From contig JAUVHO010000006.1 in NCBI GenBank assembly GCA_030593295.1, forward strand, positions 281-64,280: a stretch of 64,000 bases of DNA. The letters run 5' to 3'. The notes under the pieces were generated by a model. The model ran no database searches, had not been told where the DNA came from, and saw only the letters and a program-made list of their open reading frames with translations. The translations under genes were made by a program, and so were the position numbers. This stretch comes from Methanomassiliicoccales archaeon. Its GTDB lineage: Archaea > Thermoplasmatota > Thermoplasmata > RBG-16-68-12 > SOIM01. Below, one piece after another: positions 7,603-59,803 of the stretch (within the stretch, counting starts at the first letter, position 1; each line of letters begins with the position of its first letter).

Positions 7603-7691
7603 GCCGGCGTAGCTCAGCCTGGTCGAGCATCCGGCTGTTAAAGCTCTCTGCAGAAACCGGACGGTCACCGGTTCAAATCCGGTCGCCGGCG
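7603..7691 (+). tRNA. tRNA-Asn (GTT) with a 15-nt intron at the canonical 37/38 position
   Basis: Acceptor GCCGGCG/CGCCGGC, D arm GCTC..GAGC, anticodon stem TCCGG/CCGGA (7630-7634 / 7657-7661). The loop is CTGTTA + intron 7641-7655 + A. T arm ACCGG TTCAAAT CCGGT. Confidence 0.85.
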
Positions 7692-7702
7692 CTACTTCTA
7701 GT

Positions 7703-10700
7703 CTATCGTCCAGAGCGCCAGTAGGTTCCACCAACTTCTCTAAAATGGCCTTCGAATCCATCGAGGATGGAGGCTGTTTCTCTACTGTCGTCCCCGAGGA
7801 ACATCTCCTCTCTGACATCATGGTCCAGGTTCTTGACGACCTCTTGCAGTTCCGCCCTGGTAGTCATCTCGAGGTTGGAGGATGATACCACCGCCAGATG
7901 GATGCGCTTTCCATGGAGAATCGCCACCTTGTATTCATCGAAGTCCAGATTCTTGGACTTTCCTATGCCAGGTGCTCTCGTCCGCTGCCTTATCAGACCA
8001 TACGGGACGGTTCTCTTGTCAGTCATGTTGACTTCCTTGATGAGTGCACCGTCCTCTCTGATCAAATAGCCCACATATATCTCCGGTTTGTTGGCAATAT
8101 AGTACACACACATAAGCAGAATCACCACCGCTGCCAGAATGATCCAGAGCCAGAAATCTTCGTTCAGTTCTATTATGACCCTGACGTCCACGTAAGAGGA
8201 ATTGACCCCGTCGCTCACCGTTATTCTAATGAGATCCCCGCTCATACTTGAAGGGTACCTGAGAGTCAGGTTGAAGCCGTCTGTGGTCACATGTCCGCTA
8301 TCTACCGAGATGACCAAGGAGTCCATGGGAGTGTCGATATCATGAACGTACTCCATTATGTCCAGTACTTTGTCCCTATCAGCCGTGGTCTTGATGTCCG
8401 GAATGTCGTCTATCACGGGTGCATCATTGACCGGGTTCACCAGGACGATCACCACGTCTTCCACCAGAGCTCCAGTGGGGTCGGTCGCTCTTATGGTGAT
8501 TATCTCGAACCCGAACCAGTCAGGCTCCGCCCACATGTCCACTGTCTTGTTGGCGTTGATCCTGATTTTCACTGATTCATTACCTGAAGTGTAGTACAAG
8601 TTGTCCCCGTCGATGTCGAGGAAGTAGTAGTCCATGTTGGTGAAGAACACGTTCAGCACCATTTCATCCTCATCGAAGGAAACATCAGGTAACAGGTGGA
8701 GCTTCTCGGGCGGGTAGTCATCCAATATCGTTATGTTGATGACCTGGAAATCGGTGGCATTCCCGTCAGAGACCCATATGGTCACTGGCACCGTCTGCCC
8801 AAGCATTGACTGGGGATAGTTCATGACAAGTCCGAGGTTGTTCAGCGGATTGGTCCAGATGTGGGCGCTGTCGGAGGTCAATACTGTAAGCTGATCCAGG
8901 GGAGTATCCTCATCGTTGATGTACGGTGACAGATCGAAGTTGTATGAATAGTCGTAGTGGACGATAATATCCGGAACGCCCGAGATCGTGGGTGGTTTGC
9001 TCACAGATATGATTGGTTCCGGTGTGGAAAGCCCAGAGACTTGATCTTCAGATCTCAGGCCAACTTCATCCCATGCGATGCCTCTCAGGATAACGCCTTT
9101 CAGTGTCTGGTTCCCTATGGTCCACAAGGCCGAGCCATCCGGGGGAGCCTCCGTGGCGATTGTGTGAAGCTGTCCGTCATCATATCTGAGCTCAACTAGG
9201 ACGGCATCAGGATCCACTATGTACACAATGGTCTCAGTGCCGTTTATCTCAGAGAAGTCAAGGGGTTGCAGGATCTGTATGGATGGCGGTGTGCAGTCGA
9301 TCTCGATGTTTGTCACGCTGTCCTCGGCTGTAAAGTTACTCGAAGTTCTTGCTGTGGCCCGAATACTCGTTACCCTGTCCCCAACAGCGCATGAATCGAA
9401 TGTGTACGTCCCGTCGAGGTCGGAATCAAATCCAATGGCTCTCCAAGACGCGCCCTCGAAGTACTCGAAGGAGATGTTCGAGACTGGTCCGCTTACCGAA
9501 TATGCGAGATTGTATGTGCCTGTGATATGCTCGTCCGGCACTGGACTGAGGATGGTCACCGAAAGTGAGGACCACAGGGCTGTGTACCAGTACATTCCCT
9601 GCCCGGCAGTATCAAAGACCGTGCTTGCTCCTCCAGTTCCCATTGTCGTGTTCATGACCTTACCTGAAGGTGCGACACCGGAGGCGTCCATGTCATACAT
9701 ATAGTATGTGTTTATTGGACTCGAGGGTGTGACCAGGCTGGTCGGTTGAATTGTGGAATCATACGCCAAGATGAATCTCTCTCCACCGTTGACTGCGGTC
9801 ACATTGATCTCCAGGCGGAGAAGCCGGGGAACGGCATTCGTGAAGGTGTATTGGGCACCGTTACCTATGTTCAGGGTAAGCGGATTGGGAGTGGTGCTGT
9901 CAATCGTTATGGTCGGCGACGTCACGATCTCCTGCGGGTCAGAGCCATCAGGCATCACGTGGTATACACTCGCGATGATCTGCACGTTGGCCGAGGTTTC
10001 TTCTGGACCTATCGTGGTCAGAGGTGTCTGCCTATTGAACTCGATAACAAACCATCCTATATCGGCCTCATCGGTTGCGTTGTCTCGTTCCATGATGATC
10101 TGGGTTGGCGAAAGGGCCATGGTGACCGATGCAATGCCGGCGGTATCATCCAGGATGAAGGGTGTGCGTCCCAGGCTCTGGCCACATCCGATTTGCACGG
10201 AAGCGAATGCTGCCGAACGATTTGTATCGACTGTGGCTGGAAGTATGACGCTCTTCTGATACTCACCGGGTCCGAAGTGAGCATTCCCCGACAACACCCT
10301 GCTCCCATCACTTAGCTCCACGGCCTGCCAGAATATCTCTGTGATGTTGTCTGGAGATCCAGATGCGCCTCTGTCAAACATGATGTTGGTCGGGTTCGTC
10401 AGCTGAGCCCGGAGCATTCTCGAACCCAGGTCCTGGCCAGTGTGGGGGGTCCGGAATCCAGCAAGGATGAAGGTCTTGTCCAAAGCCACTGGTGTTCCCA
10501 ATGTCGCGTTGACCCAGGTCGTAGTCCCTGTCATCGAAAGAACCGACCCCGTCTGGACATCGATGTCACCTGGATTTGTGAACTCCACTACCTGCCAGAA
10601 GACCCTATGAGCAGGGTTCGCCGAATCGACCCTGAACTGAAGGTTCGATGTGCTGGTAATCTCTCCGACTGTCAGGTCGTCATAGTTCCAGTGTTGGTCA

Positions 10701-11557
10701 GCCGCTGCTGGCGTCCTCGACCATGTCAAGAACGCCTGGTCGATTGGAGATATCGGACTGATGGCCACGTTCGTTGTCGTTGAACTTTGGGATGTTATGC
10801 CTCGCTGAACTTTCACTCCTGAGTAATACTCAACCACATACCATTGGATCGTCATTGGAACTGGTGTGACCTCATTAGTCACCCGTTCGAACTCAAGGGT
10901 TGTTGGCGAGGCTATCCTGCCGCCGATCTCTGAACCTACCGGTCTATTGCTGTCGTGACGGCTGTTGAAGATCAGGAAGGATCTGGACATGTTGAGTTGC
11001 GATATTGGGACGGTTGTGATTCCATTTGCCGCACTCACTGCTGTTCCGCTCTGAACACTCTTGACTCCTGTGCCAATGGTGACGTTGGTGGGGGGATCGG
11101 TGGCCGTTGGATTACCGTAGTAGATGTAGTAATGGTCATCAGACGAAGAGATGTTCAACCCCTTCTGGAGCTCGAAGTGGAGTGTTGTTTTCGGGTCATT
11201 CCATGAGGATCCAAGGTCAAGGGTTCTGTTGATCTCAATCCATTGGGTCGAATCCCAGTAGACGATTCTGATGTCGTCCCCGTCAATCTGAGACTTACCT
11301 GTCGAAACGAGAGCTGAGTGATTGAAAGCTGTGGAGATTGTGTAACCGGCTGGGAATGCCGAGAGGCCTGATGTGACCGTGATCTGCTGCCTATACTGGT
11401 ACCAAGTTCCCCACCAAGGTCTCGGGAGTTCATCGAAGTACAGGTTCAAGGTGTGTGGTCCGGCATTGAAGTTCACATTGCCGCTTCCAGTGGGCCACGA
11501 TGGTGATATTGTCAGAAGTAGGAACAGTGCTACGACGATGGCAATTACCCTTCTCAT
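7703..11557 (-). CDS. Giant surface protein, paralog 3 (1284 aa): signal peptide, DUF2341-like module, cadherin/Ig-like modules, C-terminal TM helix, 127-aa cytoplasmic tail
   Basis: ATG with a GGGAGGAG SD 5 nt upstream; ATGA overlap with the upstream stop (11554-11557). N-terminus MRRVIAIVVALFLLLTISPSWP. DUF2341-like segment GDDIRIVYWDSTQWIEINRTLD...HYYIYYGNPTA. Modules end in VNDAP. TM helix FWLWIILAAVVILLMCVYYI. Confidence 0.9.
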   Translation of the reverse strand: MRRVIAIVVALFLLLTISPSWPTGSGNVNFNAGPHTLNLYFDELPRPWWGTWYQYRQQITVTSGLSAFPAGYTISTAFNHSALVSTGKSQIDGDDIRIVYWDSTQWIEINRTLDLGSSWNDPKTTLHFELQKGLNISSSDDHYYIYYGNPTATDPPTNVTIGTGVKSVQSGTAVSAANGITTVPISQLNMSRSFLIFNSRHDSNRPVGSEIGGRIASPTTLEFERVTNEVTPVPMTIQWYVVEYYSGVKVQRGITSQSSTTTNVAISPISPIDQAFLTWSRTPAAADQHWNYDDLTVGEITSTSNLQFRVDSANPAHRVFWQVVEFTNPGDIDVQTGSVLSMTGTTTWVNATLGTPVALDKTFILAGFRTPHTGQDLGSRMLRAQLTNPTNIMFDRGASGSPDNITEIFWQAVELSDGSRVLSGNAHFGPGEYQKSVILPATVDTNRSAAFASVQIGCGQSLGRTPFILDDTAGIASVTMALSPTQIIMERDNATDEADIGWFVIEFNRQTPLTTIGPEETSANVQIIASVYHVMPDGSDPQEIVTSPTITIDSTTPNPLTLNIGNGAQYTFTNAVPRLLRLEINVTAVNGGERFILAYDSTIQPTSLVTPSSPINTYYMYDMDASGVAPSGKVMNTTMGTGGASTVFDTAGQGMYWYTALWSSLSVTILSPVPDEHITGTYNLAYSVSGPVSNISFEYFEGASWRAIGFDSDLDGTYTFDSCAVGDRVTSIRATARTSSNFTAEDSVTNIEIDCTPPSIQILQPLDFSEINGTETIVYIVDPDAVLVELRYDDGQLHTIATEAPPDGSALWTIGNQTLKGVILRGIAWDEVGLRSEDQVSGLSTPEPIISVSKPPTISGVPDIIVHYDYSYNFDLSPYINDEDTPLDQLTVLTSDSAHIWTNPLNNLGLVMNYPQSMLGQTVPVTIWVSDGNATDFQVINITILDDYPPEKLHLLPDVSFDEDEMVLNVFFTNMDYYFLDIDGDNLYYTSGNESVKIRINANKTVDMWAEPDWFGFEIITIRATDPTGALVEDVVIVLVNPVNDAPVIDDIPDIKTTADRDKVLDIMEYVHDIDTPMDSLVISVDSGHVTTDGFNLTLRYPSSMSGDLIRITVSDGVNSSYVDVRVIIELNEDFWLWIILAAVVILLMCVYYIANKPEIYVGYLIREDGALIKEVNMTDKRTVPYGLIRQRTRAPGIGKSKNLDFDEYKVAILHGKRIHLAVVSSSNLEMTTRAELQEVVKNLDHDVREEMFLGDDSRETASILDGFEGHFREVGGTYWRSGR

Positions 11558-14500
11558 CGCGACTCCTCCCGTGAGCTGTCGTCACCCTTCGCTTCCTCCC
11601 CAGATTCCTGGAGATTCCCATTCTTATTGTTACCGTTGAGATGCTCTATGTCCTCTGTGCTCTGGCCTTCCTTGAGATCTGGAAGGTGTCTGCACAGGAG
11701 GCCATGAACACCCGCGAACCTATGCACGAATCCATCCCAGTCCTCCAATTCGGCCGCGTATGTGCTCTCAACATCCTGAATAGCCTCGCTGATCGGCTGC
11801 AAATTCCATGGCGTCTCACGGCCACGGTAGACGACTGCGAGAAATACATGCTCGCCTCTTTCTAGGGCGATCTTCCTATCTCCGAAGTCTATCTGCTTGA
11901 CGGGTGAGTCCTCCACCTCTTTGAATGAGTCCTTGATGAATTCTTGGATGGCCGTCAGCATGTTTGAGAAAATATCCTCGTCGATATCTGTCTGTTTCCC
12001 GACCACCGTGTGGTGGATCAGGCTTCCGTTTCTGTATATCAGGAATGCTTCGTCAATGTGGATCCTAGAGAAGAACCCTCTTGAGAATAGTACAAGAATC
12101 ACTGATAGAAGAAAAGCTACGATGAAAGACCAGGGCCAGAGTATTTGGTCCCATACTGACGGAGGCGGTGCTCCCACGATTCTCACATTGAACGACCCAA
12201 AGGCTGTCTTATTGCCATCGCTGATGTCAATCTGTATGGTGTCAGTCCCCTCAAATGGGTAGTTGAGGATCAGGATCGATCCCGCCAGGGTCACCGTGGT
12301 CTTTGCACGCTCTCCCGATGCGGATATGATGAGGTCCGAGAAATCGTTGTCGATATCGAACACATAATCCGACAAGTCCAGAGTGTATATCTGGTCCTTT
12401 TGGATGGTCAGGTCTGGAATATCGAGAATATATGGAGCATCATTCACTGGTATTACCGTGATTCTGGCGGTTTGCTCTGCGATGGCCCCATATGGGTCCG
12501 TTGCCCTGAAGGTCACATACTCTTGGCCGAACCAGTCCTGCGTTGACGAGAATGAGACAAGGAACGTGGAGGAGTTGATGGTCACTGTGACATTGGATGA
12601 AGCACTTGAATAGGTCAATGTGTCAGCATCATTGTCCGCGAAGCAGATGGTTATGTTGAACGCGTCAGGAAGTGTCGTGTCTTCAAAGAACGAATAGTCT
12701 GGAATGATGGACGCGACCTCCGGGGGCCAGTTGTCTGTGACTGTGATCTGAATATCTTGATATGCTTCGGCCAGGCCATCTGAGGCCGTTATCCTCACTT
12801 CAATCGTTAGCCCTGACATGCTCTCAGGGTAATGAACCTCCATCACCGTGTTGACTGAACTGTTGAAGAATATGTGGGCGGGGTCGTTCGTTGAGATGAA
12901 CAGCTCTGAGGTCTGGTTGTCCACATCCTCGATGTATGGTGCCAGGTCGAATATGTAGTTGTAGAACGGCCTTGCCGGGTCCTCATAGTGTACCATCAGA
13001 TCGGGGACTCCCGATATCGTCGGTGGATCGTTGACCGGCAGAACGGTCACCAGGATGATGTCCTCTGCCCTTGCATTCTCCGGGTCCACACCCCTGAAAC
13101 TGACTATCTCGACACCGAACCAGTCCTCAGGGGCATTGAAGTCAACCGAGTGGTTCTCGTGGATCGTGATCTCGGTGTGGATGTTCCCGCTTGTATAGAA
13201 CAGACTGTCTTGGTCAGGGTCATCGAAGTAATCGTCAAGATTGAAGCGGTCCTTGACCTCCTGACCTTCGAACAGGACCACGTCCGGGAGCTCTCTGATA
13301 AGGACAGGGACGAAGTCATCTGAGACAGTTATCGCCAGTACCGTTGACATCTGCCCCCCATGCTCGTCCTCAACGGTCACTATGGGGTAGACCGTTGTGC
13401 CCATGAGCTCTTCTGGATAGGTGAAGGTCCCCCACAGTCCATTGAACGAAATGCTGCCTGAATCATCACTCGAGAGGGTGAGATTATCCCGAGCCGTTTC
13501 GACATCACTCACATAGTCGTAGAAATAGTATGTGTAAGGCTCACTGTAGTGGATCGTGAATGGGGTTATGCTCTGTATTATTGGGCGATCGTTGACAGAA
13601 GTTATGGTAATGGAAAGCGTCTGAGCGTCGACGTAGCCATCACTGTCTCTCAGCCATATCATCAGGTCGTCAGTTCCGAATGCATCTGGCACCGTTGTGA
13701 AGGTGATCAGGTGGTTGCCAACGATATCGTTACCGGTGACAGTGGTCAACGAAGGATCTTGGTCTGTCAATGACCACATGAGTTCCGCGAGCGAGTCTTG
13801 AGGGTCGCTGGCATAAGAAGAAAGGTCTAAGATCCAAGTTCCATAATCCTCCGGCTTCACCTGATTCGGGATTGTACCCACAATGGTCGGCATCACATTT
13901 ACCTCCACCACTTCCAGGTTGGCAATCCCTGTGATGTTGTCCTGGTTCACAGCGGTGACCTGAATCCACCCATTGAGATTCTCTGTGTCCTGAGCCTTGA
14001 GCGTCGCATGGGTTGGAGACGAACTGGTTATGTTGCCGGCATTGGTGTTCCACAATGGACCGATGAGCGTCACTTCATTGCCATCTGAATCGGATCCAGT
14101 TGCCGTGAAGTTCTGGAAATCCCCTATGAGAAGTGTGATATTGTCTGGTTGGACCATAATCGAAGCTAGATCCCCTGCTATGACCGTTATCGTGTCCGAT
14201 GTGTTCGTATCACCAAACCCATCATCGATTGAGACCGTTCCGACCCCCACTGTTGTCGCATCGAATGTTGACGTTGTGGAAGGTCCAGACGTTATCGTTC
14301 CAATGCCTCCATTGACTATCCAGGCCACAAACGCGGTTCCGATTTGATTGCCGTCACCGTCGTACTCGTATGCGGTCAAGTTCACGTGTTCATCTGCGGT
14401 CAACGTGCCAGGACTCCAGGGCTCTATTCCCACTGATGCTCTGGAACCCGTTATTACTTGGAACGTGTTCGTGGTGTTCGAGTGCCCGTTTCCATCGTCA

Positions 14501-16497
14501 GCGGTCACATCGCCCATGCCTGGAGTGGTAGCGTCGAATACGGCTGAAGAACTCGGTCCAGCGGGTATCGTTCCGATTCCGCCTGATACGCTCCAATTCG
14601 CCATGATTGGTCCGATTGCATTCCCTTTGGAGTCATAAGCAATGACGTTGAACAACTGGACATCGTCCGTCGTCAGGGTCCCAGGGTCCCTCGGGTCGAT
14701 GCCAATCCTCGCAGCATTTCCCGCCAGAACGTTCACCAGTGTGTAGTTCGAGATCGAATCGGCCGTGTTGTTGCAGTACACTCTCCACGTCCCGACCATC
14801 CCCGGATTATAGACTCCGAATGCGTCCACCGTCCCCCAAGGATCATCCGTTTCCCATTTCTCGGTGAAAGGTGTCGTGTGATGGAATACATCATGTCCAA
14901 TTGCGTCGAGATCCACCCATTCATCCGTGGTCCCTGTCCATGTCGGCACTGACATGTGGATGTGATCAAGAATGCCAAAGAACTGGTAGGTCACACTCAT
15001 GTTCAAGAGCGTTGGGCTGAGCATCGGGTCAGTGGTGGTCAGGTTCGCTCTGAACCTGATTGCTGGATCTGGGATTGACTGTAGACTGCCTCCTGAGAAT
15101 ATCTCTGTCCATGACATGCCCGAATCTGTTGAGTGCCAGTACGAAACATTGGTGCCTGGCGGGGTATTCTCATGTGCGTTGAGTGTTTCCCACCCCACCC
15201 AATTGCCAGGTGCCAGGTCTTCTGTTTCTACATGTCCTTCAGAAGCATATGCTTGATAGTCGATTCTAACTTCTTCCAGTATTGGTTTCACGGTCCTGTT
15301 GAGCGTGTCCATCTCCACCTTGTATTGTATGCATCTGCCAGATGGAGAAGTGATCTGTGATCCGCCAGGTGAAGCGTATGCCGCGGACCATGCAGACCAA
15401 CTGCCAGAGCAGTCACCTGAGCGGGTCTGAACAGTCATACTTGTCTGTCCGGGGACTGTCGAGTTCCAGCTGATGTTGCCCCAGTTGACTGTGAATCCTG
15501 CATCGGAAACTCTCGAGATGAAAGTCCCGTTCGCCAACCCGCCCTCCTGGGTGATGTAGTCCAAGTGAAGTCTGGGACGGTTGCCTGGAACCACTGATTC
15601 TTTGCTGTGGAACAGTTTTTCATTCACTGATGGACCTATTTCCGGAGTGATGAGAATCACACCATAGTTAGGCTTGGTACCGTTGCTCCAATCTCTGAAG
15701 AGTTGAGCAATGTCCCAGTAATACCAGTTGGTCTGATCTCGTATTGAATATACTGTGTCTTCAGGAACGGGATTGAAGTCTCCGCCATCCACTGTCCAGA
15801 GGGTCGACCCATCTCTGTGCCTGTACGTGACACCGTCGTTAGTCACGGAGCCATCGCCAGTACCCTCGACCCAGGACGCATTTACCTGATGTAAGGACAC
15901 ATTCAGAGGTTGGGATGAACTTGAGGTTTCCAGTTTCAGCATTATCTGTGCCGATGTCACCAAGTCATAGGATTGCAGAGGAGTCAGATTGAATTCGATC
16001 ATAGCCCTCTTCGGATCGACTGGTTCAGTGTTTATGGTCGTTGAAACGCCATAGTTCCTATTCGAGAAGCCATTGTTGATGTAGGCATCCTTTCCTCCGA
16101 TGTCAGTGATTTGGAACTCGATCCATTGAGGCGTGCCAGCTGAATCCGTGTTCATTATTGTCACATTTCCCGGATCGTTAGCCACGTCCACGTTCAGAAT
16201 CACTGTTCCCTGTAGAAAATCGCTTTGCGATGTGTCAACAAACTCGCTGGAATACCTTTGGAGTGTAACGTTGCTCGCAGACACGCTCACATTGTTGGAT
16301 GTGTAGTTGGCCGCGTTCTGGAAGTCCCATGTAGCCGTCGTCGTCCCATCGCCATTGTCAACGAGTGTGGGATCTCCCGAAGACAGATTGAAAAGAGACA
16401 AGAGATTGGACAGGATCATCAAAGCTAGGACTATGCTTAAGATGGCTCTTCTATTTCGAGGAGGGTTTCCTTCATTGCTTTGAAGCATGTTCTTCAC
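11554..16497 (-). CDS. Giant surface protein, paralog 2 (about 1647 aa): N-terminal anchor, DNRLRE-like module, three Big_2-like Ig repeats, cadherin-like modules, C-terminal TM helix, Roadblock-like cytoplasmic tail
   Basis: The track ORF starts at TTG 16545. I prefer GTG at 16495-16497 because CCGGAGGGAA lies 5 nt upstream, exactly as in paralog 1. The N-terminus (V)KNMLQSNEGNPPRNRRAILSIVLALMILSNL parallels paralog 1. Modules end in VNDRP, VNDPP and VNDAP. TM helix ILWPWSFIVAFLLSVILVLF. Confidence 0.9.
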   Translation of the reverse strand: MKNMLQSNEGNPPRNRRAILSIVLALMILSNLLSLFNLSSGDPTLVDNGDGTTTATWDFQNAANYTSNNVSVSASNVTLQRYSSEFVDTSQSDFLQGTVILNVDVANDPGNVTIMNTDSAGTPQWIEFQITDIGGKDAYINNGFSNRNYGVSTTINTEPVDPKRAMIEFNLTPLQSYDLVTSAQIMLKLETSSSSQPLNVSLHQVNASWVEGTGDGSVTNDGVTYRHRDGSTLWTVDGGDFNPVPEDTVYSIRDQTNWYYWDIAQLFRDWSNGTKPNYGVILITPEIGPSVNEKLFHSKESVVPGNRPRLHLDYITQEGGLANGTFISRVSDAGFTVNWGNISWNSTVPGQTSMTVQTRSGDCSGSWSAWSAAYASPGGSQITSPSGRCIQYKVEMDTLNRTVKPILEEVRIDYQAYASEGHVETEDLAPGNWVGWETLNAHENTPPGTNVSYWHSTDSGMSWTEIFSGGSLQSIPDPAIRFRANLTTTDPMLSPTLLNMSVTYQFFGILDHIHMSVPTWTGTTDEWVDLDAIGHDVFHHTTPFTEKWETDDPWGTVDAFGVYNPGMVGTWRVYCNNTADSISNYTLVNVLAGNAARIGIDPRDPGTLTTDDVQLFNVIAYDSKGNAIGPIMANWSVSGGIGTIPAGPSSSAVFDATTPGMGDVTADDGNGHSNTTNTFQVITGSRASVGIEPWSPGTLTADEHVNLTAYEYDGDGNQIGTAFVAWIVNGGIGTITSGPSTTSTFDATTVGVGTVSIDDGFGDTNTSDTITVIAGDLASIMVQPDNITLLIGDFQNFTATGSDSDGNEVTLIGPLWNTNAGNITSSSPTHATLKAQDTENLNGWIQVTAVNQDNITGIANLEVVEVNVMPTIVGTIPNQVKPEDYGTWILDLSSYASDPQDSLAELMWSLTDQDPSLTTVTGNDIVGNHLITFTTVPDAFGTDDLMIWLRDSDGYVDAQTLSITITSVNDRPIIQSITPFTIHYSEPYTYYFYDYVSDVETARDNLTLSSDDSGSISFNGLWGTFTYPEELMGTTVYPIVTVEDEHGGQMSTVLAITVSDDFVPVLIRELPDVVLFEGQEVKDRFNLDDYFDDPDQDSLFYTSGNIHTEITIHENHSVDFNAPEDWFGVEIVSFRGVDPENARAEDIILVTVLPVNDPPTISGVPDLMVHYEDPARPFYNYIFDLAPYIEDVDNQTSELFISTNDPAHIFFNSSVNTVMEVHYPESMSGLTIEVRITASDGLAEAYQDIQITVTDNWPPEVASIIPDYSFFEDTTLPDAFNITICFADNDADTLTYSSASSNVTVTINSSTFLVSFSSTQDWFGQEYVTFRATDPYGAIAEQTARITVIPVNDAPYILDIPDLTIQKDQIYTLDLSDYVFDIDNDFSDLIISASGERAKTTVTLAGSILILNYPFEGTDTIQIDISDGNKTAFGSFNVRIVGAPPPSVWDQILWPWSFIVAFLLSVILVLFSRGFFSRIHIDEAFLIYRNGSLIHHTVVGKQTDIDEDIFSNMLTAIQEFIKDSFKEVEDSPVKQIDFGDRKIALERGEHVFLAVVYRGRETPWNLQPISEAIQDVESTYAAELEDWDGFVHRFAGVHGLLCRHLPDLKEGQSTEDIEHLNGNNKNGNLQESGEEAKGDDSSREESR
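11742..12063 (-). other. Roadblock/LC7-like (MglB-type) cytoplasmic domain of paralog 2
   Basis: Sequence IHIDEAFLIYRNGSLIHHTVVGKQTDIDEDIFSNMLTAIQEFIKDSFKEVEDSPVKQIDFGDRKIALERGEHVFLAVVYRGRETPWNLQPISEAIQDVESTYAAEL. The pattern is hairpin, long amphipathic helix, three strands, C-terminal helix. Assignment is by eye only. Confidence 0.55.
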
Positions 16498-16557
16498 ACA
16501 TTCCCTCCGGCTCGTGGAACGTTCAGCTTCTGCTCCCCGCATCAAGCTCTGGGCTCG

Positions 16558-16565
16558 AATATAAG
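16558..16565 (-). promoter_or_regulatory. Candidate TATA box (CTTATATT on the minus strand) for paralog 2
   Basis: It lies about 60 nt upstream of GTG 16497, at the same relative position as the CTATATAG upstream of paralog 1, inside a conserved leader block. Confidence 0.35.
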
Positions 16566-16718
16566 ACTAGTTTCAGGAATACCATGGGTGAGAATCATTT
16601 GTGATATTCGGGAGGCCTTGGTGACAATCCGATGTCAAGAAGTTGATTTCTCGCTTAATCGATGAACGTTTTTGTCGGTTGAGATTCTCGTCGGCTGCCG
16701 TTCCCCTCTTCTCTGTGT

Positions 16719-19700
16719 CTAAGCCTTCAGATGCTTCTCCATTATCTCCCCGACTCCGGAGAATTCGCTTAGTGATCTATCCACACTCTCAATCATTTCC
16801 GAGTATTTCTTTTCAATCTCTTCTATGGCATTTTTCATCGGCTGGACGTTTCTCGCGTTCTCGTGGCCGCTGTAGACGACTGCCAGGTAGACACTCTTCC
16901 CCCTCTCGATCAATATCTTGTGATTCCCAAACTCAATCCTCTTCACGGGGGAGTCCTCAACTTCCCTGAAGGAGTCACCGATGAATGACTGGATGGCAGT
17001 CAACATCCCCGAAAATATGTCCTTATCCATTTCCGTCTCTGTTCCGATGGCTGTGTGTGCAATCAACATCCCGTCTGCGTGGATCAGGAAAGCCTCGTCG
17101 ATGTATATCTTCCCCAGGAACTGCTTGGCCAGAAGGAACGCTATTAACAGAGTCAGAATGGCCACCAGTAAGGACCACGGCCAAAATATCTGATCCCAGA
17201 TAGTCGGAGCAGGCGGACCGACAACCCTGACGTTGAACGATGTGAAGGTGGTCTTGTTCCCGTCACTGACCCTCAATTGCAAAATGTAGTCTCCTTCTTC
17301 GTCGAAGCTGAAGATGATGTAAGAACCGGCTATCGCTATTGTTGCATCCAAGTGCACGCTCACTATCGATATGTCCAGTTCGGAGAAATTGTTGTCAATG
17401 TCAAGAATGTGGTTGAGAAGATTAAGGGTATGGACAGCTCCTTCGGCTAGCTCTTGATCTGGGATGGGGGGGTACACAACTGGCGCGTCATTCACAGGAA
17501 TCACGGTGATTCGTATCGTCTGCTCCAGAACTGCGCCATGAATGTCCATTGCTCTGAAGGTGACTAACTCGAATCCAGACCAGTTGGCCGCGGATGAGAA
17601 AGAAACAACCGATGTCGTCTCGTCTATCTCCACAAAGACGTTGTTGGATATGCTTGAGTATGACAATTCATCCCCTTCCGGGTCAATGAAGTGATTGTCC
17701 AGGTCGAATGCATTGCTCAGCGGAATGTCCTCGTGCAGTTCATAATCTGGTATGGGTGAGGATATCTCTGGCGGCCAATTCTCCAGTATGGTGATGTTGA
17801 TGTCCTGGTATGCCAGACTTGAGTTGTCGGAGACCGTGATCCTGACCACAACTGTCTGCCCTTTCATGCTCTCGGGATAATGGATTTCCATGATCGAGTT
17901 CTTCGAACTGTTGAAGAAGATGTGGGTTTGGTCGTCAGTTGATATGCTCAATTCTGAGATGGGGTTGTCCTCGTCGTAGATATAGGGCTCCAGATCAAAG
18001 GTGTAATTGTAGTTGGGTCTGGAAGGATCGTCATAGTGAACTGCCAAGTCGGGGACTCCGGATATCGATGGAGCGTCGTTCACCGGCAACACCGTGACCA
18101 GAACGATGTCCTCAGCCCTTGCGTTGTAGGGATCTATCGCCCTGAAGGATACGGTTTCCACACCGGACCAGTCATCAGGTGCTATGAAGTCGACCGAATG
18201 GTTCTCATGGATGACTATCTGGGTGTTCACATTTCCGCTCGAGTAGTAGAGACTGTCCCCATCCGGATCATCGAAGTAGTCATCCAGGTCGAAGTAATCT
18301 CTGGCCACCTCTCCCTCGAAAATTACAACATCTGGTAGCTCCCTAATCAATACGGGCACATAATCCTCCGAAACGGTTATGGCTAGCACTGTTGTCCTCC
18401 ACCCGCCATCTCCATCATACACTGTTACTTCCGGATAGACCGTTTGACCGTTGAACTCCACCGGATAGGTGAACGTGCCCCAGAGCCCAGAAAATGACAC
18501 GTATTGGGGTTGAGAACTCTCTAGAACGAGCTCCTCTTTGGGTGTTTCCACATCCTCTACGTAGTCGTAGAAGTAATATGTGTACGGTACGTCATAGTGA
18601 ACCGTGAACGGCGTAATGCTGTGGATTATCGGGTTGTCGTTGACCGGAGTTATGTTCACCCAGAACTTCTGGCCGTCCACCTGTCCATCGCTGTCCCTCA
18701 GCCATATTGTCATCTCGTCGCTCCCGTAGGCGTCTTTCACTGTGGTGAACATGATTATGTGGTTACCTGTTACCTCATCTCCAGAAATTATGATCAGTGA
18801 GGGGTCATTCTCCGTGAAGAACCAGGTCAGGTCTGATAGGGGGTCCTGCGGGTCGCTAGCAAAGGAAGAGATATCCAATGTCCAACTGCCATAGTCCTCC
18901 GGCCTCTGCTGACTGGGTATTGTTCCTACAATCTCTGGTTTCACATTCACGGCCGCAACATCTATCGTCGAACTGGCAGTCACGTTGTTCTGGAATACGG
19001 CTGTGACCCTTATCCATCCATTTGACAGCTCGGTGTCTCGAGCCTGGAGCATTGCTCCACTGGCCGCGGAGTTCACGATTGTGCCCGCGTTGGTTTCCCA
19101 GAGTGGATTGACAAGGGGGACAATATTGCCATCTGAATCAGATCCTTCCGCAGTGAAGTTCTGGTACTCTTCGGTGAGCAATATCACACTGGGTGGATCA
19201 AGAACGATTATGGCCAGCTGACCTGCAATAACAGGTATCTGATCGGTAGTGTTCGTAAGCCCCATTCCACCGTCGATTGTGATCGTTCCAACGCCAACAG
19301 TGGTCGCATCAAAGACCGATGTCTGGGAGGGACCGACCGGTATTGTTCCAATCACGCCACTGACGGACCATGACACAGTTGCCGGTCCGATCTGATTCCC
19401 ATCCGAATCATACGAATATGCAGCGAGATTCACGTTATCGTCTGTGGTCAGAGTTCCAGGGCTCCAGGGCTCAATGCCTATTCGACTTCGGGCGCCTGCG
19501 ACCACTTGAATGATGTTCGTTGTGTTCGAATGTCCATTTCCATCGTCCGCACTCACCGTACCCAGGCCAGGTGTTGTTGGATCGAAAAGAGCCGAAGAAC
19601 TCGGCCCGATTGGTATGGTCCCAATTCCTCCAGAGACACTCCAATTTGCCGCAATTGGACCAATGGAATTGCCTTTGGAATCATATCCAATGGAGTTGAA

Positions 19701-21938
19701 CAACTGTGTGTCATCTGTGGCTAGGATCCCAGGATCCCACGGGTTGATTCCTATCCTTGCCACGTTACCGCTGGTCACACTGACCACGGTGTAGTTCGAG
19801 ACCGAATCATCCGAATTATTGCAGTAAACTCTCCAGACTCCTACCATACCTGGGTAGTAGAGGCCCGAAGTGTTGACCAAGCCCCAAGGGTCGTCCGTTT
19901 CCCACTTCTCAACGAACGGTGTTTGATGATGGTATGCATCATGGCCGAGGGCGTCAAGGTCGACCCATTCATCAGTCGTCCCGATCCATGTCGCTTGAGA
20001 CATGTGAATGTGATGAAGAGGTCCAATGACCACGTACCGGAGATTCATTTCTAGAAGAGTCGGAGTCACCGAAGTATTCGTCGTTTCCAGATTTGCCCTG
20101 AACCTGATCTTCGGTATGGGGGTGGCACTCAAATTGTCTCCAGGATTCAGATTGGTCCAGTTGGATCCCGAATCAATGGAATACCAGAAAGTTATCATCG
20201 TTTCTGCCGGTGTAACCATGGTTGCGTTGAAAACCTCCCAACTCCCAACGTCTAAAGGTATGAAGTCCTCTGTCTCCACTCTTCCGCTTAAGGAATACTT
20301 CAGGAAGCTGACATCAACCTCTAACAGGGCAGGAGTATAGGCCCTGTCAAGAGTCCCGAGATATGCTCTGTACTGAATGTATCTGGCAGAGGGGCTTGGT
20401 ATGGTCTCTCCGCCTGAAATCGTCAACTCGCCTGACCAACTGCTCCAAGTGCCATCGATTGTTGGAGAATGACCCGTCCTTGTCTGCAGAGATATGCTGG
20501 TGGAAGCCGCTGGTATGTTCTCTCCCCACGACATGTTATTCCAGACGGCCGAGCTTCCTGCATCATATATCACAGAAGTCAGGTTGCCCAGAGGTAAGTA
20601 CTCATACACGCCCATGATGCTGATATTGTCTACACTCACGCTAGCAATTACATCGTTGAACGTATTCGCCAGCAAATGAAACTGAAAGCTGATTTCATAC
20701 GTTCCCGGATTTGTACTCCATTGGCTTATGTCCACCGCTATTGATGTCCAAGGCTCAATTCCGACCAGACTTTTCGTCCACGTCAATGAATTGTTGATGT
20801 ATACATCGATGTCCGCAACACTGATGTTGGCTATCTCCTCTGCTGTGTAGTCGAATGTCAGGTTCACCATTCCCGGCATGTCTGGAGTATATGATTGTTT
20901 GTTGAAAGTCTGATTGGCATAGGCTATCTCATCGAACTGCATCCAGGGTCCACCATCTATCAGCACGATCTCGTCAACGTACAGTTCAATTGGATTGGGG
21001 GTTGGAGCGTCCGTAAGATGAATGCGTAACACATCAACAATAGCTAACGTGCTGCTTCCTGCGGGACCGGACCCCTCAAATCCAGTGACGTCGAACGTGT
21101 AGGTGTTCCATCCCGAGACCATCGGCTGTGAGGAGGTCTCCCAAAACGTGCTGACAGTGTCCGAAACAGCCGCCAATTGCAGATGCATCGTCTCGCCGAG
21201 ATCATCAAGGGTGTATGCCTTCACGGCTATCGCACTTACAGTTGACCAGTTCCAGGTTCCTGTGTCATTCCTTTCCACCCCATACTGCTTGCCAGGAGTG
21301 TTGAGAGTGAGCACAATCCTCATATTACCAGTACCTTCAGCTATTGGAGGTGCCGAATTCTGGAAGAAATCTCCATCATTCTTCGATTCTTTTGCATCTT
21401 CAGCCCATTCAGTGAGGACCACATCGTCCATTGAATCGAATATCTGGTTGGTGATGTTGGAAACAACGTTGTCATGAAACCACAGATCCTGATCGGTCGA
21501 AGACCATTCCACCGTCACATTGTCAGTGCTGCCGTTCGTCAGCGTCCAGTAATTGCTGGATGTCAAGTTCCCATTTCTGATCATTTCGGTGTGGTTGTGG
21601 GAGAGAAGAACACTTCCATCTGGAGTAGTGGTCACATTCTGCTTTGAGCCCGAATCGAAATCAGCTTGTGTTGTCTGGTTCCACCAATACTCGCTTGCCG
21701 AAAGATTCGCCTCTCCACCACTGATGGTCGCATTCAACGCCGTGTAGTTCGCCGGATTCTGAAATGACCATGTTGCAGTTGTGGTTCCGTCCAAGTTGTC
21801 CTGCAGAGATGGATCTCCGATTATGCCTCCAAACATCGAGACAAAGTTTGAGAATATCAGAATACCAAGAATTACGATCAATAGAGCATTCTCTGTGCCA
21901 GAAGGGTTACCTCTTCTATCTTCAGGTGCTTTCTTCAC
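16719..21938 (-). CDS. Giant surface protein, paralog 1 (1739 aa): N-terminal anchor, large N-glycosylation-sequon-rich ectodomain, Big_2-like Ig repeats, cadherin-like modules, C-terminal TM helix, Roadblock-like cytoplasmic tail
   Basis: GTG start with CCGGAGGGAA 5 nt upstream. N-terminus MKKAPEDRRGNPSGTENALLIVILGILIFSNF. Long collinear similarity to paralog 2, for example HIHMSQATWIGTTDEWVDLDALGHDAYHHQTPFVEKWETDDPWG versus HIHMSVPTWTGTTDEWVDLDAIGHDVFHHTTPFTEKWETDDPWG. TM helix IFWPWSLLVAILTLLIAFLLA. Confidence 0.9.
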   Translation of the reverse strand: MKKAPEDRRGNPSGTENALLIVILGILIFSNFVSMFGGIIGDPSLQDNLDGTTTATWSFQNPANYTALNATISGGEANLSASEYWWNQTTQADFDSGSKQNVTTTPDGSVLLSHNHTEMIRNGNLTSSNYWTLTNGSTDNVTVEWSSTDQDLWFHDNVVSNITNQIFDSMDDVVLTEWAEDAKESKNDGDFFQNSAPPIAEGTGNMRIVLTLNTPGKQYGVERNDTGTWNWSTVSAIAVKAYTLDDLGETMHLQLAAVSDTVSTFWETSSQPMVSGWNTYTFDVTGFEGSGPAGSSTLAIVDVLRIHLTDAPTPNPIELYVDEIVLIDGGPWMQFDEIAYANQTFNKQSYTPDMPGMVNLTFDYTAEEIANISVADIDVYINNSLTWTKSLVGIEPWTSIAVDISQWSTNPGTYEISFQFHLLANTFNDVIASVSVDNISIMGVYEYLPLGNLTSVIYDAGSSAVWNNMSWGENIPAASTSISLQTRTGHSPTIDGTWSSWSGELTISGGETIPSPSARYIQYRAYLGTLDRAYTPALLEVDVSFLKYSLSGRVETEDFIPLDVGSWEVFNATMVTPAETMITFWYSIDSGSNWTNLNPGDNLSATPIPKIRFRANLETTNTSVTPTLLEMNLRYVVIGPLHHIHMSQATWIGTTDEWVDLDALGHDAYHHQTPFVEKWETDDPWGLVNTSGLYYPGMVGVWRVYCNNSDDSVSNYTVVSVTSGNVARIGINPWDPGILATDDTQLFNSIGYDSKGNSIGPIAANWSVSGGIGTIPIGPSSSALFDPTTPGLGTVSADDGNGHSNTTNIIQVVAGARSRIGIEPWSPGTLTTDDNVNLAAYSYDSDGNQIGPATVSWSVSGVIGTIPVGPSQTSVFDATTVGVGTITIDGGMGLTNTTDQIPVIAGQLAIIVLDPPSVILLTEEYQNFTAEGSDSDGNIVPLVNPLWETNAGTIVNSAASGAMLQARDTELSNGWIRVTAVFQNNVTASSTIDVAAVNVKPEIVGTIPSQQRPEDYGSWTLDISSFASDPQDPLSDLTWFFTENDPSLIIISGDEVTGNHIIMFTTVKDAYGSDEMTIWLRDSDGQVDGQKFWVNITPVNDNPIIHSITPFTVHYDVPYTYYFYDYVEDVETPKEELVLESSQPQYVSFSGLWGTFTYPVEFNGQTVYPEVTVYDGDGGWRTTVLAITVSEDYVPVLIRELPDVVIFEGEVARDYFDLDDYFDDPDGDSLYYSSGNVNTQIVIHENHSVDFIAPDDWSGVETVSFRAIDPYNARAEDIVLVTVLPVNDAPSISGVPDLAVHYDDPSRPNYNYTFDLEPYIYDEDNPISELSISTDDQTHIFFNSSKNSIMEIHYPESMKGQTVVVRITVSDNSSLAYQDINITILENWPPEISSPIPDYELHEDIPLSNAFDLDNHFIDPEGDELSYSSISNNVFVEIDETTSVVSFSSAANWSGFELVTFRAMDIHGAVLEQTIRITVIPVNDAPVVYPPIPDQELAEGAVHTLNLLNHILDIDNNFSELDISIVSVHLDATIAIAGSYIIFSFDEEGDYILQLRVSDGNKTTFTSFNVRVVGPPAPTIWDQIFWPWSLLVAILTLLIAFLLAKQFLGKIYIDEAFLIHADGMLIAHTAIGTETEMDKDIFSGMLTAIQSFIGDSFREVEDSPVKRIEFGNHKILIERGKSVYLAVVYSGHENARNVQPMKNAIEEIEKKYSEMIESVDRSLSEFSGVGEIMEKHLKA
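16793..17108 (-). other. Roadblock/LC7-like (MglB-type) cytoplasmic domain of paralog 1
   Basis: Sequence IYIDEAFLIHADGMLIAHTAIGTETEMDKDIFSGMLTAIQSFIGDSFREVEDSPVKRIEFGNHKILIERGKSVYLAVVYSGHENARNVQPMKNAIEEIEKKY. Roughly two thirds identical by eye to the paralog 2 tail. Confidence 0.55.
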
Positions 21939-21996
21939 TTGTTCCCTCCGGGTGGAACTTCCTGCTGCAACTCTTTGAAAGGATTACTCGACTCTG

Positions 21997-22004
21997 CTAT
22001 ATAG
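21997..22004 (-). promoter_or_regulatory. Candidate TATA box (CTATATAG) for paralog 1
   Basis: It lies 58 nt upstream of GTG 21938 and is flanked by GGTAATCCTGAAGC, which is conserved upstream of paralog 2 as GGTATTCCTGAAAC. Confidence 0.35.
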
Positions 22005-22077
22005 CTGGCTTCAGGATTACCAGTGTTGAAAATCAACTCTGATAGCAGAACGGATTATTCTGCAAATGAACATGTTC

Positions 22078-22121
22078 TGAAAAGGGTTCGATTCCCCCAC
22101 AATCGGATGTGTTCCTGGGGG
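22078..22121 (-). terminator. Hairpin plus short T-run immediately after the GTPase stop
   Basis: Minus strand reads TAG aa CCCCCA-16 nt-TGGGGG aatcgaaCCCTTTTC. The stem is 6 bp and the T-run is only 4 T, so at best a leaky terminator. Confidence 0.3.
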
Positions 22122-22123
22122 TT

Positions 22124-22735
22124 CTAGGAAGCCGGACTGCCCGCGGCATCTTCTGTGGTCGCTGACACGTCCTCGGAGAGCTTCCTCTCCACTATCCGTC
22201 TCATGATCTCGTTGGTCAGGTCCTCGAATATCCTCTCCACATTCTCTCCGGTCAAGGCGCTGGCTGTCGAGTACTCCGCGTGGTTCTTCTCGGCCACTCG
22301 TCTGAGTTCTTCTTCGCTTACCACCTTTTCGTCCCCGAGATCATTCTTGTTGCCAACCGTGACGATGGGAACCTCGCCGGCAACTGCGTGTGTTCTTTCC
22401 AGCCAATCCTCAACACCTTCGAGGGTCCGAGGTCTTGTCAGGTCGCAGACAGCAATAATGCCATCCACTCCGAAGAAGTAAGCCTCTTGGAGAAGGGCTC
22501 TGAAGCCATGTTGGCCCATGATATCCCATATCGCCATATCAACGGCAATATCCCCATCTCCCATTGGATTTGGAATGACCATCTCTCTCTTTGTGATCTT
22601 GGTGCCCAATGTAGTTATGTACTTGTCGCTGAACTCATCGTACACGAACTTTCTTATCAGGCTCGTCTTCCCGACTGCGGAGTCTCCAACTAGGCACACC
22701 TTCAACTTCAGCAGGTCACTGTAATCTCTTTTCAT
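22124..22735 (-). CDS. Ras/Rab-like small GTPase (203 aa)
   Basis: G1 GDSAVGKT, switch I YITTLGT, G3 WDIMGQ, G4 GNKNDL, G5 SAL. The overall layout matches Rab/Ras (LKVCLVGDSAVGKTSLIRKFVYDEF...). No C-terminal Cys. SD GGTGG upstream. Confidence 0.9.
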   Translation of the reverse strand: MKRDYSDLLKLKVCLVGDSAVGKTSLIRKFVYDEFSDKYITTLGTKITKREMVIPNPMGDGDIAVDMAIWDIMGQHGFRALLQEAYFFGVDGIIAVCDLTRPRTLEGVEDWLERTHAVAGEVPIVTVGNKNDLGDEKVVSEEELRRVAEKNHAEYSTASALTGENVERIFEDLTNEIMRRIVERKLSEDVSATTEDAAGSPAS

Positions 22736-22914: not shown

Positions 22915-23027
22915 GGGCCCGTAGCTTAGCCTGGTGGAGCGTCTGGCTCATAACCAGATGGTCGTCGGTTCGAAAAGCGATGTGCATCCTTTCGTACGCA
23001 CCCGTTGCGAAAATCCGGCCGGGCCCA
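22915..23027 (+). tRNA. tRNA with CAT anticodon (elongator Met or Ile2) carrying a 39-nt intron in the T-loop
   Basis: Acceptor GGGCCCG/CGGGCCC, D stem GCTT/GAGC, anticodon stem TCTGG/CCAGA with loop CTCATAA. T stem GTCGG (22964-22968) / CCGGC (23015-23019) encloses 46 nt instead of 7. G1-C72 argues against an initiator tRNA. Confidence 0.8.
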
Positions 23028-53765: not shown

Positions 53766-54230
53766 CTACCCTCCTCGTGTTTGTGCTAAGTTGCATCTCA
53801 ACAGTGACAGCCGCGTCTGCAACGTGGCAAACGTCACAATGATCCGTGTTTCCTCCTATATTCCCCTTTCCGGGTTCCGTGTGAGTTCTGTGCTACTTGA
53901 GCGGAAGAAGAAAATCCTTTTGCCCTTGTGCCATCTTCACCGTTCCCTGCGCACTGCTCTCGGCATGGGAATGTATCTCGAGGTACTTTTAAGTTGTCCT
54001 TCGTGGAACATCATTGACGGTCCTTTTCGGGAGACTCCATCATCTTCCATCTCGGCTTTGGCGTTACGTTTTGACCGAGCATCCCGCAAGGGTATTTATA
54101 TCCAGAATCTTTACGTCCTTTTCTGAGAGAATTGCGAAAGGGAGTGGGACGGGAGATTGGTGAGGCTAGTGTTATCTCACTCTCAGAAGCAAGTGATGAG
54201 TGTTGAATTCAATTAAGAGGAGGATAGTAG

Positions 54231-59094: not shown

Positions 59095-59799
59095 ATGGCA
59101 GCACCCGTAGTTGTTCAAGCACGGAATCTTCACAAGGTGTATGACACCGGTACTGTGAAAGTTGACGCTCTCAGAGGCATCGATCTGGACATTCATCAAG
59201 GAGAGATGGTCTCCGTCATGGGTCCATCTGGATGCGGCAAGACGACCTTGCTGAACTGCCTGTCGGGGATAGACGACCCCACTGAGGGCCAGATCATCAT
59301 CGAAGGTCAACCCATCGAGGGAATGTCGGATAATCAGAAGACCGAATACCGTGCCAAGAGGATCGGCTTCATATTCCAGGCATACAACCTTCTCCCCGTA
59401 CTGACCGCGGTGGAGAACGTCGAACTCCCCTTGCTCTTGAGCGGCATTAGGCTGAAGGATGCAAGGAAGAAGGCCCTCGAGGCCCTGAGCTGGGTAGGAC
59501 TCGAGAAATGGGAATCCCACAGACCCTCCGAGCTTTCAGGCGGTGAACAGCAGAGGGTGGCCATCGCCAGGTCCCTCGTCAATCACCCCGCGATCGTTTT
59601 TGGAGATGAATTGACCGGCAATCTGGACGAAGAGACCACCCACCAGATCATGGAACTCGTCCTCGGCCTGAACAAGAAGAACAATCAGACCTTCGTCATA
59701 GTCACACACGACGCCGCGGTCGGAGAGATGGCGCACCGTGTTCTGAAGCTGAGAGATGGGATAATAGAGAAGGAATATCGACCGGTGCCTGTTGGATGA
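59095..59799 (+). CDS. ABC transporter ATP-binding protein (MacB/LolD-like)
   Basis: Motifs GPSGCGKTTLLN and LSGGEQQRVAIARSL, Walker B IVFGDELTGNLD. GAGGAGG SD; TATA-like CTTTAAATATC upstream. Confidence 0.95.
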   Translation: MAAPVVVQARNLHKVYDTGTVKVDALRGIDLDIHQGEMVSVMGPSGCGKTTLLNCLSGIDDPTEGQIIIEGQPIEGMSDNQKTEYRAKRIGFIFQAYNLLPVLTAVENVELPLLLSGIRLKDARKKALEALSWVGLEKWESHRPSELSGGEQQRVAIARSLVNHPAIVFGDELTGNLDEETTHQIMELVLGLNKKNNQTFVIVTHDAAVGEMAHRVLKLRDGIIEKEYRPVPVG

Positions 59800-59803
59800 G
59801 ACC

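Follow-up and report, generated by a model that had tools for sequence, protein, structure and literature searches.

Is the small GTPase gene at the head of an array of giant surface-protein genes functionally linked to the cytoplasmic tails of those proteins? The question is raised by positions 7703-22735 of the window, a 64,000-nucleotide stretch of contig JAUVHO010000006.1 from a Methanomassiliicoccales archaeon. Four co-oriented minus-strand open reading frames (ORFs) fill this interval and encode a Rab-like GTPase followed by three very large proteins, giants A, B and C. The original prediction, made from the DNA sequence, read the array as a receptor/GTPase module with Roadblock-like tails, and this reading is partly supported. 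The tails are proposed to form a membrane-tethered platform of the longin/Roadblock type for the neighboring Rab-like GTPase, a proposal judged here to stand evenly between right and wrong. Because the key functional link is still drawn from genomic and structural reasoning, the interest of the locus is considered high and not exceptional.

The GTPase and the giant surface proteins

The first gene of the array was assigned from its motifs and its profile match. G1 (GDSAVGKT) is found at residue 17, G3 (DIMGQ) at residue 71, G4 (NKND) at residue 129 and G5 (SAL) at residue 159, and G3 has the canonical DxxGQ form. The protein matches the Pfam Ras family with E = 4.7e-37 (127.5 bits), and its closest solved relatives among Protein Data Bank (PDB) sequences are Rab27B, Rab11 and a Thorarchaeota Rab. 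The presence of both the G1-G5 motifs and the Ras profile places the protein, by sequence, in the Ras superfamily as a Rab-like member, and the 203-residue small GTPase of the original prediction is borne out as an ORF, in its motifs and in its family. The C-terminus (...TTEDAAGSPAS) does not have the cysteine prenylation motif of eukaryotic Rabs. The GTPase gene is separated from the giant A gene by 185 nt and giant A from giant B by 173 nt, and the stop codon of giant B overlaps the start of giant C by 4 nt.

Three paralogous giants of 1739, about 1647 and 1284 residues in the orientation of the GTPase had been predicted, and the corresponding ORFs were found in place. The start of giant B is ambiguous; translation from the first TTG gives 1663 residues and the other starts give 1662, 1647 or 1644. 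Giants A and B are 59% identical over 1290 residues, and giant C is approximately 32% identical to both over its last 500 residues. Each protein has the expected N-terminal anchor, sequon-rich ectodomain and single C-terminal transmembrane helix. The tails beyond the helix are 128-170 residues long, close to the 130-170 anticipated. A weaker hydrophobic stretch in giant A (residues 903-921) falls within an Ig-like repeat. Giants A, B and C contain 40, 35 and 22 N-x-S/T sequons compared to 19, 18 and 11.5 in composition-preserving shuffles, an excess of about 2-fold, and nearly all of the sequons are N-terminal to the transmembrane helix.

The ectodomain modules named in the original prediction were recovered in part. 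Cadherin-like modules ending in VND[APR]P were expected; ends of the form VND[NAPR]P occur three, three and one times in A, B and C, and Pfam matches Cadherin_4 and Cadherin_5. The Big_2-like Ig repeats were not confirmed, no Big_2 match having been found in the giants; Pfam identifies Big_9. NCBIfam detects DNRLRE in giant B (E = 5.6e-18) and the tandem-95 repeat in all three giants, and DUF2341, which had been paired with DNRLRE, is absent from giant C at E ≤ 1 and is matched only in the giant C orthologs of two related loci (L001 and L003). The giants are best explained as single-pass, N-glycosylated, adhesin-like surface proteins, as judged from these sequence features.

Predicted fold of the cytoplasmic tails

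AlphaFold2 was used to model tail A from a 16-row alignment (pLDDT 83.2, pTM 0.80) and to model tail C (pLDDT 76.8, pTM 0.69). In the models, a β-hairpin directly follows the transmembrane helix and the order of elements is β-β-α-β-β-β-α-α(-α) with two or three terminal helices; tail C has the tail A order with a shorter first helix. DSSP assigns the tail A model strands at residues 2-11 and 16-21, a helix at 30-47, strands at 56-61, 64-70 and 74-82, and helices at 86-108, 114-117 and 120-128. This is the longin order (β-β-α-β-β-β-α-α), and not the α-β-β-α-β-β-β pattern of Roadblock/LC7 that the original prediction had seen in the tails of the two largest proteins.

Foldseek searches of the PDB gave 27 matches to tail A at E ≤ 1e-3, and the matches listed for tails A and C are longin, Roadblock or sedlin-type domains throughout. 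The top longin matches of tail A are the AP σ subunit (4p6z_S, the best match of all at E = 3.7e-5; 6owo_S, TM-score 0.67) and Sec22b (1ifq, TM-score 0.67), with further matches to ζ-COP (from the ζ-COP/Arf1 structure) and VAMP7. The best longin TM-score of tail C is 0.68 (2dmw). Lower in the tail A list are Rag C-terminal domains, EGO-TC, LAMTORs, dynein LC7, MglB including an MglA-bound chain, and Prometheoarchaeum Roadblock2. Many of the tail A matches stem from GTPase-binding complexes. The solved Roadblock domains of LC7 (1y4o), MglB (6h5b/6hjm), LAMTOR (6ehr), the Rag C-terminal domains (7t3a/7t3b) and Asgard Roadblock2 (9jq8) match the tails with E of approximately 5e-4 to 1.5e-3 and TM-scores of 0.42-0.57. 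The secondary-structure order and the better TM-scores fit a placement of the modeled tail domain with the longins, and the models support a fold of the longin/Roadblock superfamily. Levine et al. (PMC3747258) portray longin and Roadblock domains as near relatives in structure and as platforms for small GTPases.

Profile searches gave weak matches in the same direction. The Pfam Robl_LC7 family (PF03259) aligns to tail A with E = 0.021 and 15 bits against a curated cutoff of 23, so no Pfam match reaches the Robl_LC7 threshold, and tails B and C have no match to any family. A Robl_LC7 hit had been anticipated; the threshold was not reached, and what stands are weak, coherent matches together with longin/Roadblock fold models. 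The alignment covers profile positions 15-90 of 91, which indicates that the first Roadblock helix is missing from tail A. Robl_LC7 is the sole Pfam family matched by more than one of 38 diverse tails (three tails, best E = 0.0035), and Fuz_longin_1 is matched by one (E = 0.0097). Assignment to Roadblock/LC7 proper was rejected on the sub-threshold score and on the element order, which does not begin with the N-terminal Roadblock helix.

A tail that is instead a generic profilin-like α/β sandwich of the PAS or GAF sensor type would recognize a small ligand in the cytoplasm and play no part in GTPase function. The sub-threshold sequence evidence for longin or Roadblock and the moderate Foldseek E-values (4e-5 to 1e-3) leave some room for such a domain. 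It is considered very improbable, with no PAS or GAF domain among the 50 listed Foldseek matches of either model and with a strand and helix order exactly that of longins.

The tail domain family

The original prediction confined the tail domain to the two largest proteins. All three tails carry it: a family hidden Markov model (HMM) matches tail A with E = 4.8e-51, tail B with 4.4e-50 and tail C with 2.7e-20, and tail C is predicted to have the same fold. The tail profile was searched against 1.84 billion representative proteins, with matches counted as 50%-identity clusters. The family comprises 4,753 clusters at E ≤ 1e-3 and 2,826 at E ≤ 1e-10. A word-indexed homolog search retrieved a single match with tail A alone and only 20 short fragments with a 38-sequence profile. 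The domain forms the extreme C-terminus in 114 of the 150 best matches, and a transmembrane helix is predicted just upstream of it in most single-domain members. Family proteins range from approximately 150 to 2,400 residues and carry unrelated ectodomains (DUF11, CARDB, Big_1, Golvesin_C, PKD and cadherin-like). The tail domain is therefore not special to this locus; it is one of thousands behind many different ectodomains.

Some family members contain more than one copy. Six proteins of approximately 570 residues (P0138, P0147, P0155, P0158, P0161 and P0162) have four predicted transmembrane helices followed by two tandem tail domains, in effect a covalent 'dimer' of the domain, and have no Pfam match whatever. 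Large proteins of the P0122-P0131 and P0145-P0160 sets have two or three tail domains spaced approximately 505 residues apart and a C-terminal DUF5915; CARDB precedes the first tail copy, and the spacer of approximately 370 residues is unannotated except for a weak TPR match. P0219 joins the domain to DUF835, which has been classed among the output domains of archaeal response regulators as an inactivated KaiC (PMC5847659), and P0230 joins it to TPR repeats.

The breadth of the family raises the possibility that the tail is a generic anchoring or oligomerization module that dimerizes, clusters or scaffolds the coat proteins of a wall-less archaeon, with the GTPase merely co-regulated. The many unrelated ectodomains and the prevalence of C-terminal tails agree with such a role, and the tandem-domain members are compatible with dimerization. 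The explanation is regarded as unlikely. Family-wide conserved polar residues (H19, D29, Q41, D46, E69 and E100) and a conserved W-D-G motif following helix α2 indicate a functional site in the tail rather than a mere spacer, and the polar constellation suggests more than packing.

Linkage of GTPase and tail genes

The adjacency of GTPase and giant genes was followed into related genomes. The locus is approximately 92% identical in nucleotide sequence to a contig of Thermoplasmata archaeon RS_5_45. The GTPase is 90% identical to its counterpart in locus L001, 80% in L003, 73% in L004, 63% in L005, 62% in L087 and 58% in L006. The GTPase gene is directly upstream of giants in L001, L003, L004, L005, L006, L007 and L087 (identity range 92%-58%). 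The original prediction had called for conservation of this neighborhood in relatives, and all sampled orthologs keep the adjacency, even where GTPase identity has fallen to 58%. The giants beside the GTPase in these relatives carry the tail wherever their C-terminus lies within the locus.

The gene order in L005, L006 and L087 is GTPase-giant-GTPase-giant. The two GTPase paralog lineages in these loci are 70-76% identical within and approximately 50% identical between lineages, and each precedes its own giant, which suggests that GTPase and giant were duplicated as a unit. The window keeps the first GTPase lineage only. In L087 (CP070767.1, a complete genome; 10721-17425) the first giant is split into ORFs of 1236 and 923 residues, and only the 923-residue ORF has the transmembrane helix and tail; the split may be a frameshift, a pseudogene or an assembly error.

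More distant GTPase homologs (approximately 50% identity) fall into four further contexts, and GTPase-tail adjacency recurs in two unrelated ones. In L088, a 2,694-residue tail-bearing giant is accompanied by a TPR protein and further GTPases; in L091/L092, the GTPase is followed immediately by a tail-bearing protein of approximately 1,400 residues. Together with the window context, three of five independent contexts thus pair the GTPase with a tail-bearing protein. The TPR protein of L088 is a free protein encoded between the tail-bearing giant and the GTPase.

The linkage was also measured from the tail side. Eighty tail-encoding loci were fetched independently of the GTPase from Genome Taxonomy Database (GTDB) species representatives with a query of eight closer tail sequences; they are the best query matches and not a random sample, and nearly all come from Thermoplasmata or Methanomassiliicoccales metagenome-assembled genomes. 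A Ras-like GTPase is encoded in 13 of these loci. In 11 cases its gene falls in the first kb flanking the tail gene, on the upstream side in 6 of the 55 loci that extend upstream and on the downstream side in 5 of the 59 that extend downstream. Counted in kb-bins, 11 GTPase genes fall in the 114 nearest bins and 2 in the 512 bins beyond (odds ratio 27, p = 2.7e-7). The paired genes are variously co-directional, convergent or divergent, and these varied orientations argue against the simple inheritance of one operon. A 27-fold local enrichment that holds across differing orientations and contexts would be difficult to account for if the genes were not functionally coupled, and the paired duplication of GTPase and giant also indicates coupling; both count against a tail that serves anchoring alone.

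Clustering of the stop-to-stop ORFs near the 80 tail genes, a procedure that is noisy in high-GC genomes, did not establish any further recurrent partner. Several genomes encode at least three tail-bearing proteins. An adjacent tail-protein/GTPase pair also occurs at 9506-11859 of L075, on a 40-kb contig assigned to a candidate division KSB1 bacterium. Either the contig is archaeal and wrongly binned, or the two genes were transferred horizontally together.

Proposed role of the tails

The transmembrane helix would tether each tail domain straight to the membrane. The tails may pair as homodimers or as heterodimers among the paralogs, as is usual for longin and Roadblock domains; dimerization is suggested by the tandem-domain members and by the behavior of the known domains. 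A tail pair would then act as a membrane-bound platform that binds the Rab-like GTPase from the head of the array and thereby couples a nucleotide switch to the surface proteins. Such a platform could keep the GTPase where ectodomains are engaged, or could shift its GTP/GDP state in the manner of a GTPase-activating protein (GAP) or a guanine nucleotide exchange factor (GEF). Conversely, the GTPase could control the clustering or positioning of the surface proteins. The ectodomains appear adhesin-like, with Ig/cadherin repeats over more than 1,000 residues, and do not resemble small ligand sensors; for this reason 'inside-out' control of surface-protein clustering is regarded as no less likely than the 'outside-in' sensing implied by a receptor.

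Several observations weigh against a GTPase platform. The first group concerns the tail itself. A family-profile search of PDB sequences returned nothing relevant (best E = 0.06, ERCC-6), so the fold assignment rests on structure prediction, and no significant sequence-profile link between the tail and a solved longin or Roadblock domain was found. R22, W110 and G112, which rank among the residues best conserved across the family, have been lost from tail A, and helix α1 of tail C is cut short. Either of these tails could be degenerate, and the three paralogs may not be equivalent. No natural tail-GTPase fusion occurs among the 150 best family representatives.

The second group concerns the linkage. 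An adjacent GTPase was found for only 11 of the 80 sampled tail genes (approximately 14%), and 20-24 of the 80 loci are orthologs in one housekeeping context (FEN1, Rpe, transketolase), so the sample is not fully independent. Adjacency is strongly enriched yet true of a minority of tail genes, and the approximately 86% that have no GTPase neighbor fit a generic anchoring module. The remaining two GTPase contexts have other neighbors. In L090 (9281-10540) the GTPase gene begins 4 nt after a gene for a KaiC-like ATPase (PF06745), which suggests a different GTPase partner in that lineage. In L089/L093 the GTPase is near a PKD/He_PIG giant that has a transmembrane helix and a short proline-rich tail, and no longin-like domain was found in this giant. 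In this context, which is conserved between L089 and L093 (approximately 8500-16900), the GTPase is flanked by a divergent tail-anchored coiled-coil protein (404/428 residues), a transglutaminase-like protein and the PKD/He_PIG giant.

The L089/L093 arrangement suggests a link of the GTPase to giants generally, as would be seen if the GTPase aided the targeting, insertion, secretion or glycosylation of the giants and the tail were a handle for that machinery rather than a regulator of a signaling switch, loosely comparable to SRβ acting with the longin-fold SRX domain of SRα. The abundance of giant surface proteins in the window and related loci is in keeping with such a role in biogenesis. 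It is nonetheless judged quite unlikely: the GTPase is Rab/Ras-like and not SRP, FlhF or SRβ-like, the conserved neighborhood contains no translocon, SRP or oligosaccharyltransferase genes, and most tail-bearing proteins have no GTPase nearby.

The platform proposal can be extended from this locus to the family. It is possible, if doubtful, that the tail-bearing proteins are a widespread archaeal class of single-pass surface receptors and adhesins in which the membrane-tethered, longin-like tail directly binds Rab-like GTPases and regulates them as GEF, GAP or anchor. If true, this would amount to integrin- or receptor-like surface-to-GTPase signaling in Thermoplasmatota and would place the longin-small GTPase partnership already at the plasma membrane of non-Asgard archaea.

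Other features of the window

The coordinates of the array features are collected in Table 1. The array neighbors are genes for an Lhr helicase, a radical SAM protein, a TPR protein, FtsJ and an ABC ATPase, and tRNA genes; the window also encodes aIF5B and KaiC-like proteins.

Table 1. Positions of the GTPase, the giants and their membrane-proximal parts in the window
Feature	Coordinates	Strand	Description or basis
Rab-like small GTPase, first gene of array	22124..22735	-	203 aa; Pfam Ras, G motifs, PDB relatives
Giant A	16719..21938	-	1739 aa, GTG start; N-terminal anchor, sequon-rich Ig/cadherin-like ectodomain, transmembrane helix, tail
Giant A C-terminal transmembrane helix, aa 1586-1608	17115..17183	-	Hydropathy, sequence
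Giant A cytoplasmic tail domain, aa 1610-1739	16722..17111	-	Family HMM, AlphaFold2, Foldseek
Giant B	11554..16545	-	N-terminal anchor, DNRLRE, Ig/cadherin-like repeats, transmembrane helix, tail, acidic C-terminal extension
Giant B C-terminal transmembrane helix, aa 1470-1492	12070..12138	-	Hydropathy, sequence
Giant B tail domain, aa 1494-1624	11674..12066	-	Family HMM; 53% identical to tail A
Giant C	7703..11557	-	1284 aa; N-terminal signal or anchor, ectodomain, transmembrane helix, divergent tail
Giant C C-terminal transmembrane helix, aa 1135-1155	8093..8155	-	Hydropathy, sequence
Giant C tail domain, aa 1157-1284	7706..8089	-	Family HMM, AlphaFold2, Foldseek

Two tRNA genes border the array. 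A 113-nt tRNA-Met(CAT) gene at 22915-23027 (+), between the GTPase and Lhr genes, was undetected by ARAGORN and Rfam. Removal of approximately 37 nt from its T-arm/loop region yields a 76-nt tRNA-Met that ARAGORN accepts, which indicates an intron in a non-canonical position. The 90-nt gene at 7603-7692 (+), directly downstream of giant C, is tRNA-Asn(GTT) with a 15-nt canonical anticodon-loop intron, and not 'tRNA-Phe(aaa)' as first labeled; it is 98% conserved in L001.

Elsewhere in the window, an 888-residue HHH plus KaiC-like protein is encoded at 32285-34951. Two more giant surface proteins are encoded at 50229-58994, one of 1178 residues with PKD domains (-) and one of 1587 residues that is MAM-like (+), and the tail HMM matches neither. 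An ABC/FtsX transporter adjoins them at 59095-62788.

Comparison with known systems

The pairing of a small GTPase with a longin or Roadblock domain is core logic of eukaryotic membrane traffic and nutrient signaling. Its main prokaryotic examples, to our knowledge, are MglA/MglB and the conservon. The array would represent a new physical form of it, in which a longin-like domain is joined via one transmembrane helix to giant glycosylated ectodomains in non-Asgard archaea. If the tails bind the GTPase, the locus would offer a compact genetic model of outside-in or inside-out surface-GTPase coupling in archaea, natural cognate pairs (g1-G1, g2-G2) for biochemistry and a new data point on the age of the longin-GTPase partnership. 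The tail family merits a name and a profile even without binding, since it provides an annotation for the cytoplasmic ends of a sizable fraction of the surface proteins in Thermoplasmata. The original prediction knew of no system with this fusion, and none combining a giant, a transmembrane helix and a longin-like tail with a GTPase turned up in the open-access full-text literature, which is not proof of novelty; an archaeal membrane-protein survey (PMC5898192) makes no mention of the architecture.

The MglA-MglB system of Myxococcus and Thermus likewise has a small Ras-superfamily GTPase gene beside the gene for a longin/Roadblock-fold partner, and MglB chains (6h5b_B, 6hjm) are among the tail Foldseek matches with TM-scores of 0.50-0.55. 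MglB is small and soluble, has the α-first Roadblock order and matches Robl_LC7 significantly, whereas the domain here has the predicted longin order and is fused behind a transmembrane helix to an ectodomain of more than 1000 residues. Wuichet and Søgaard-Andersen reportedly described in 2014 an atypical G3 motif for the MglA-family GTPases. Membership in MglA/MglB was rejected because G3 is canonical (DIMGQ) and because a Pfam scan of flanking genes showed no free Roadblock gene.

The conservon of Actinobacteria (CvnA-D/Mfp) is said to have been compared to receptor/G-protein signaling in the original study by Komatsu et al. in 2006. The conservon resembles the array in that a membrane sensor is encoded together with a Roadblock protein and a small GTPase, and these three conservon proteins interact (PMC4316618). 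Here the putative receptor and the longin-like domain are one polypeptide, in contrast to the four-gene conservon unit of histidine-kinase sensor, free Roadblock protein, conserved protein of unknown function and GTPase. Conservon membership was rejected on the absence of this unit and of any kinase among the neighbors.

The eukaryotic Ragulator/EGO-Rag system also has a membrane-tethered, paired Roadblock platform that holds GTPases, and LAMTOR and Rag C-terminal domains recur among the Foldseek matches. Its tether is lipidated LAMTOR1 and not a transmembrane helix, the Rags have Roadblock domains of their own, and there is no ectodomain.

The longins (Sec22b and VAMP7 SNAREs, AP σ/μ, ζ-COP) are the best structural matches of the modeled tails (TM-scores of 0.59-0.68), with an identical β-β-α-β-β-β-α-α order. 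SRα-SRX, Mon1-Ccz1 and DENN also count as longin domains. Several longin proteins are GTPase partners or regulators (PMC3747258). The longin SNAREs are also single-pass membrane proteins. They have an N-terminal longin domain, a C-terminal transmembrane helix and no ectodomain, whereas in the giants the transmembrane helix immediately precedes the domain. The longins differ further in having no significant sequence similarity to the tails and in that the known examples are eukaryotic.

In Asgard archaea, Rab-like GTPases coexist with Roadblock and longin proteins, and the matches include a Thorarchaeota Rab for the GTPase and Prometheoarchaeum Roadblock2 for the tails. In strain MK-D1, as a rule, GTPase genes do not share operons with Roadblock/longin genes, and the fusions that are known involve GTPase domains (PMC10933270). 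The present genes differ in belonging to Thermoplasmata, in being adjacent and in fusing the domain to a giant surface protein. By analogy with these systems, the locus would work most like a blend of the Ragulator-Rag platform, the MglB/MglA gene pair and the sensor-Roadblock-GTPase set of the conservon.

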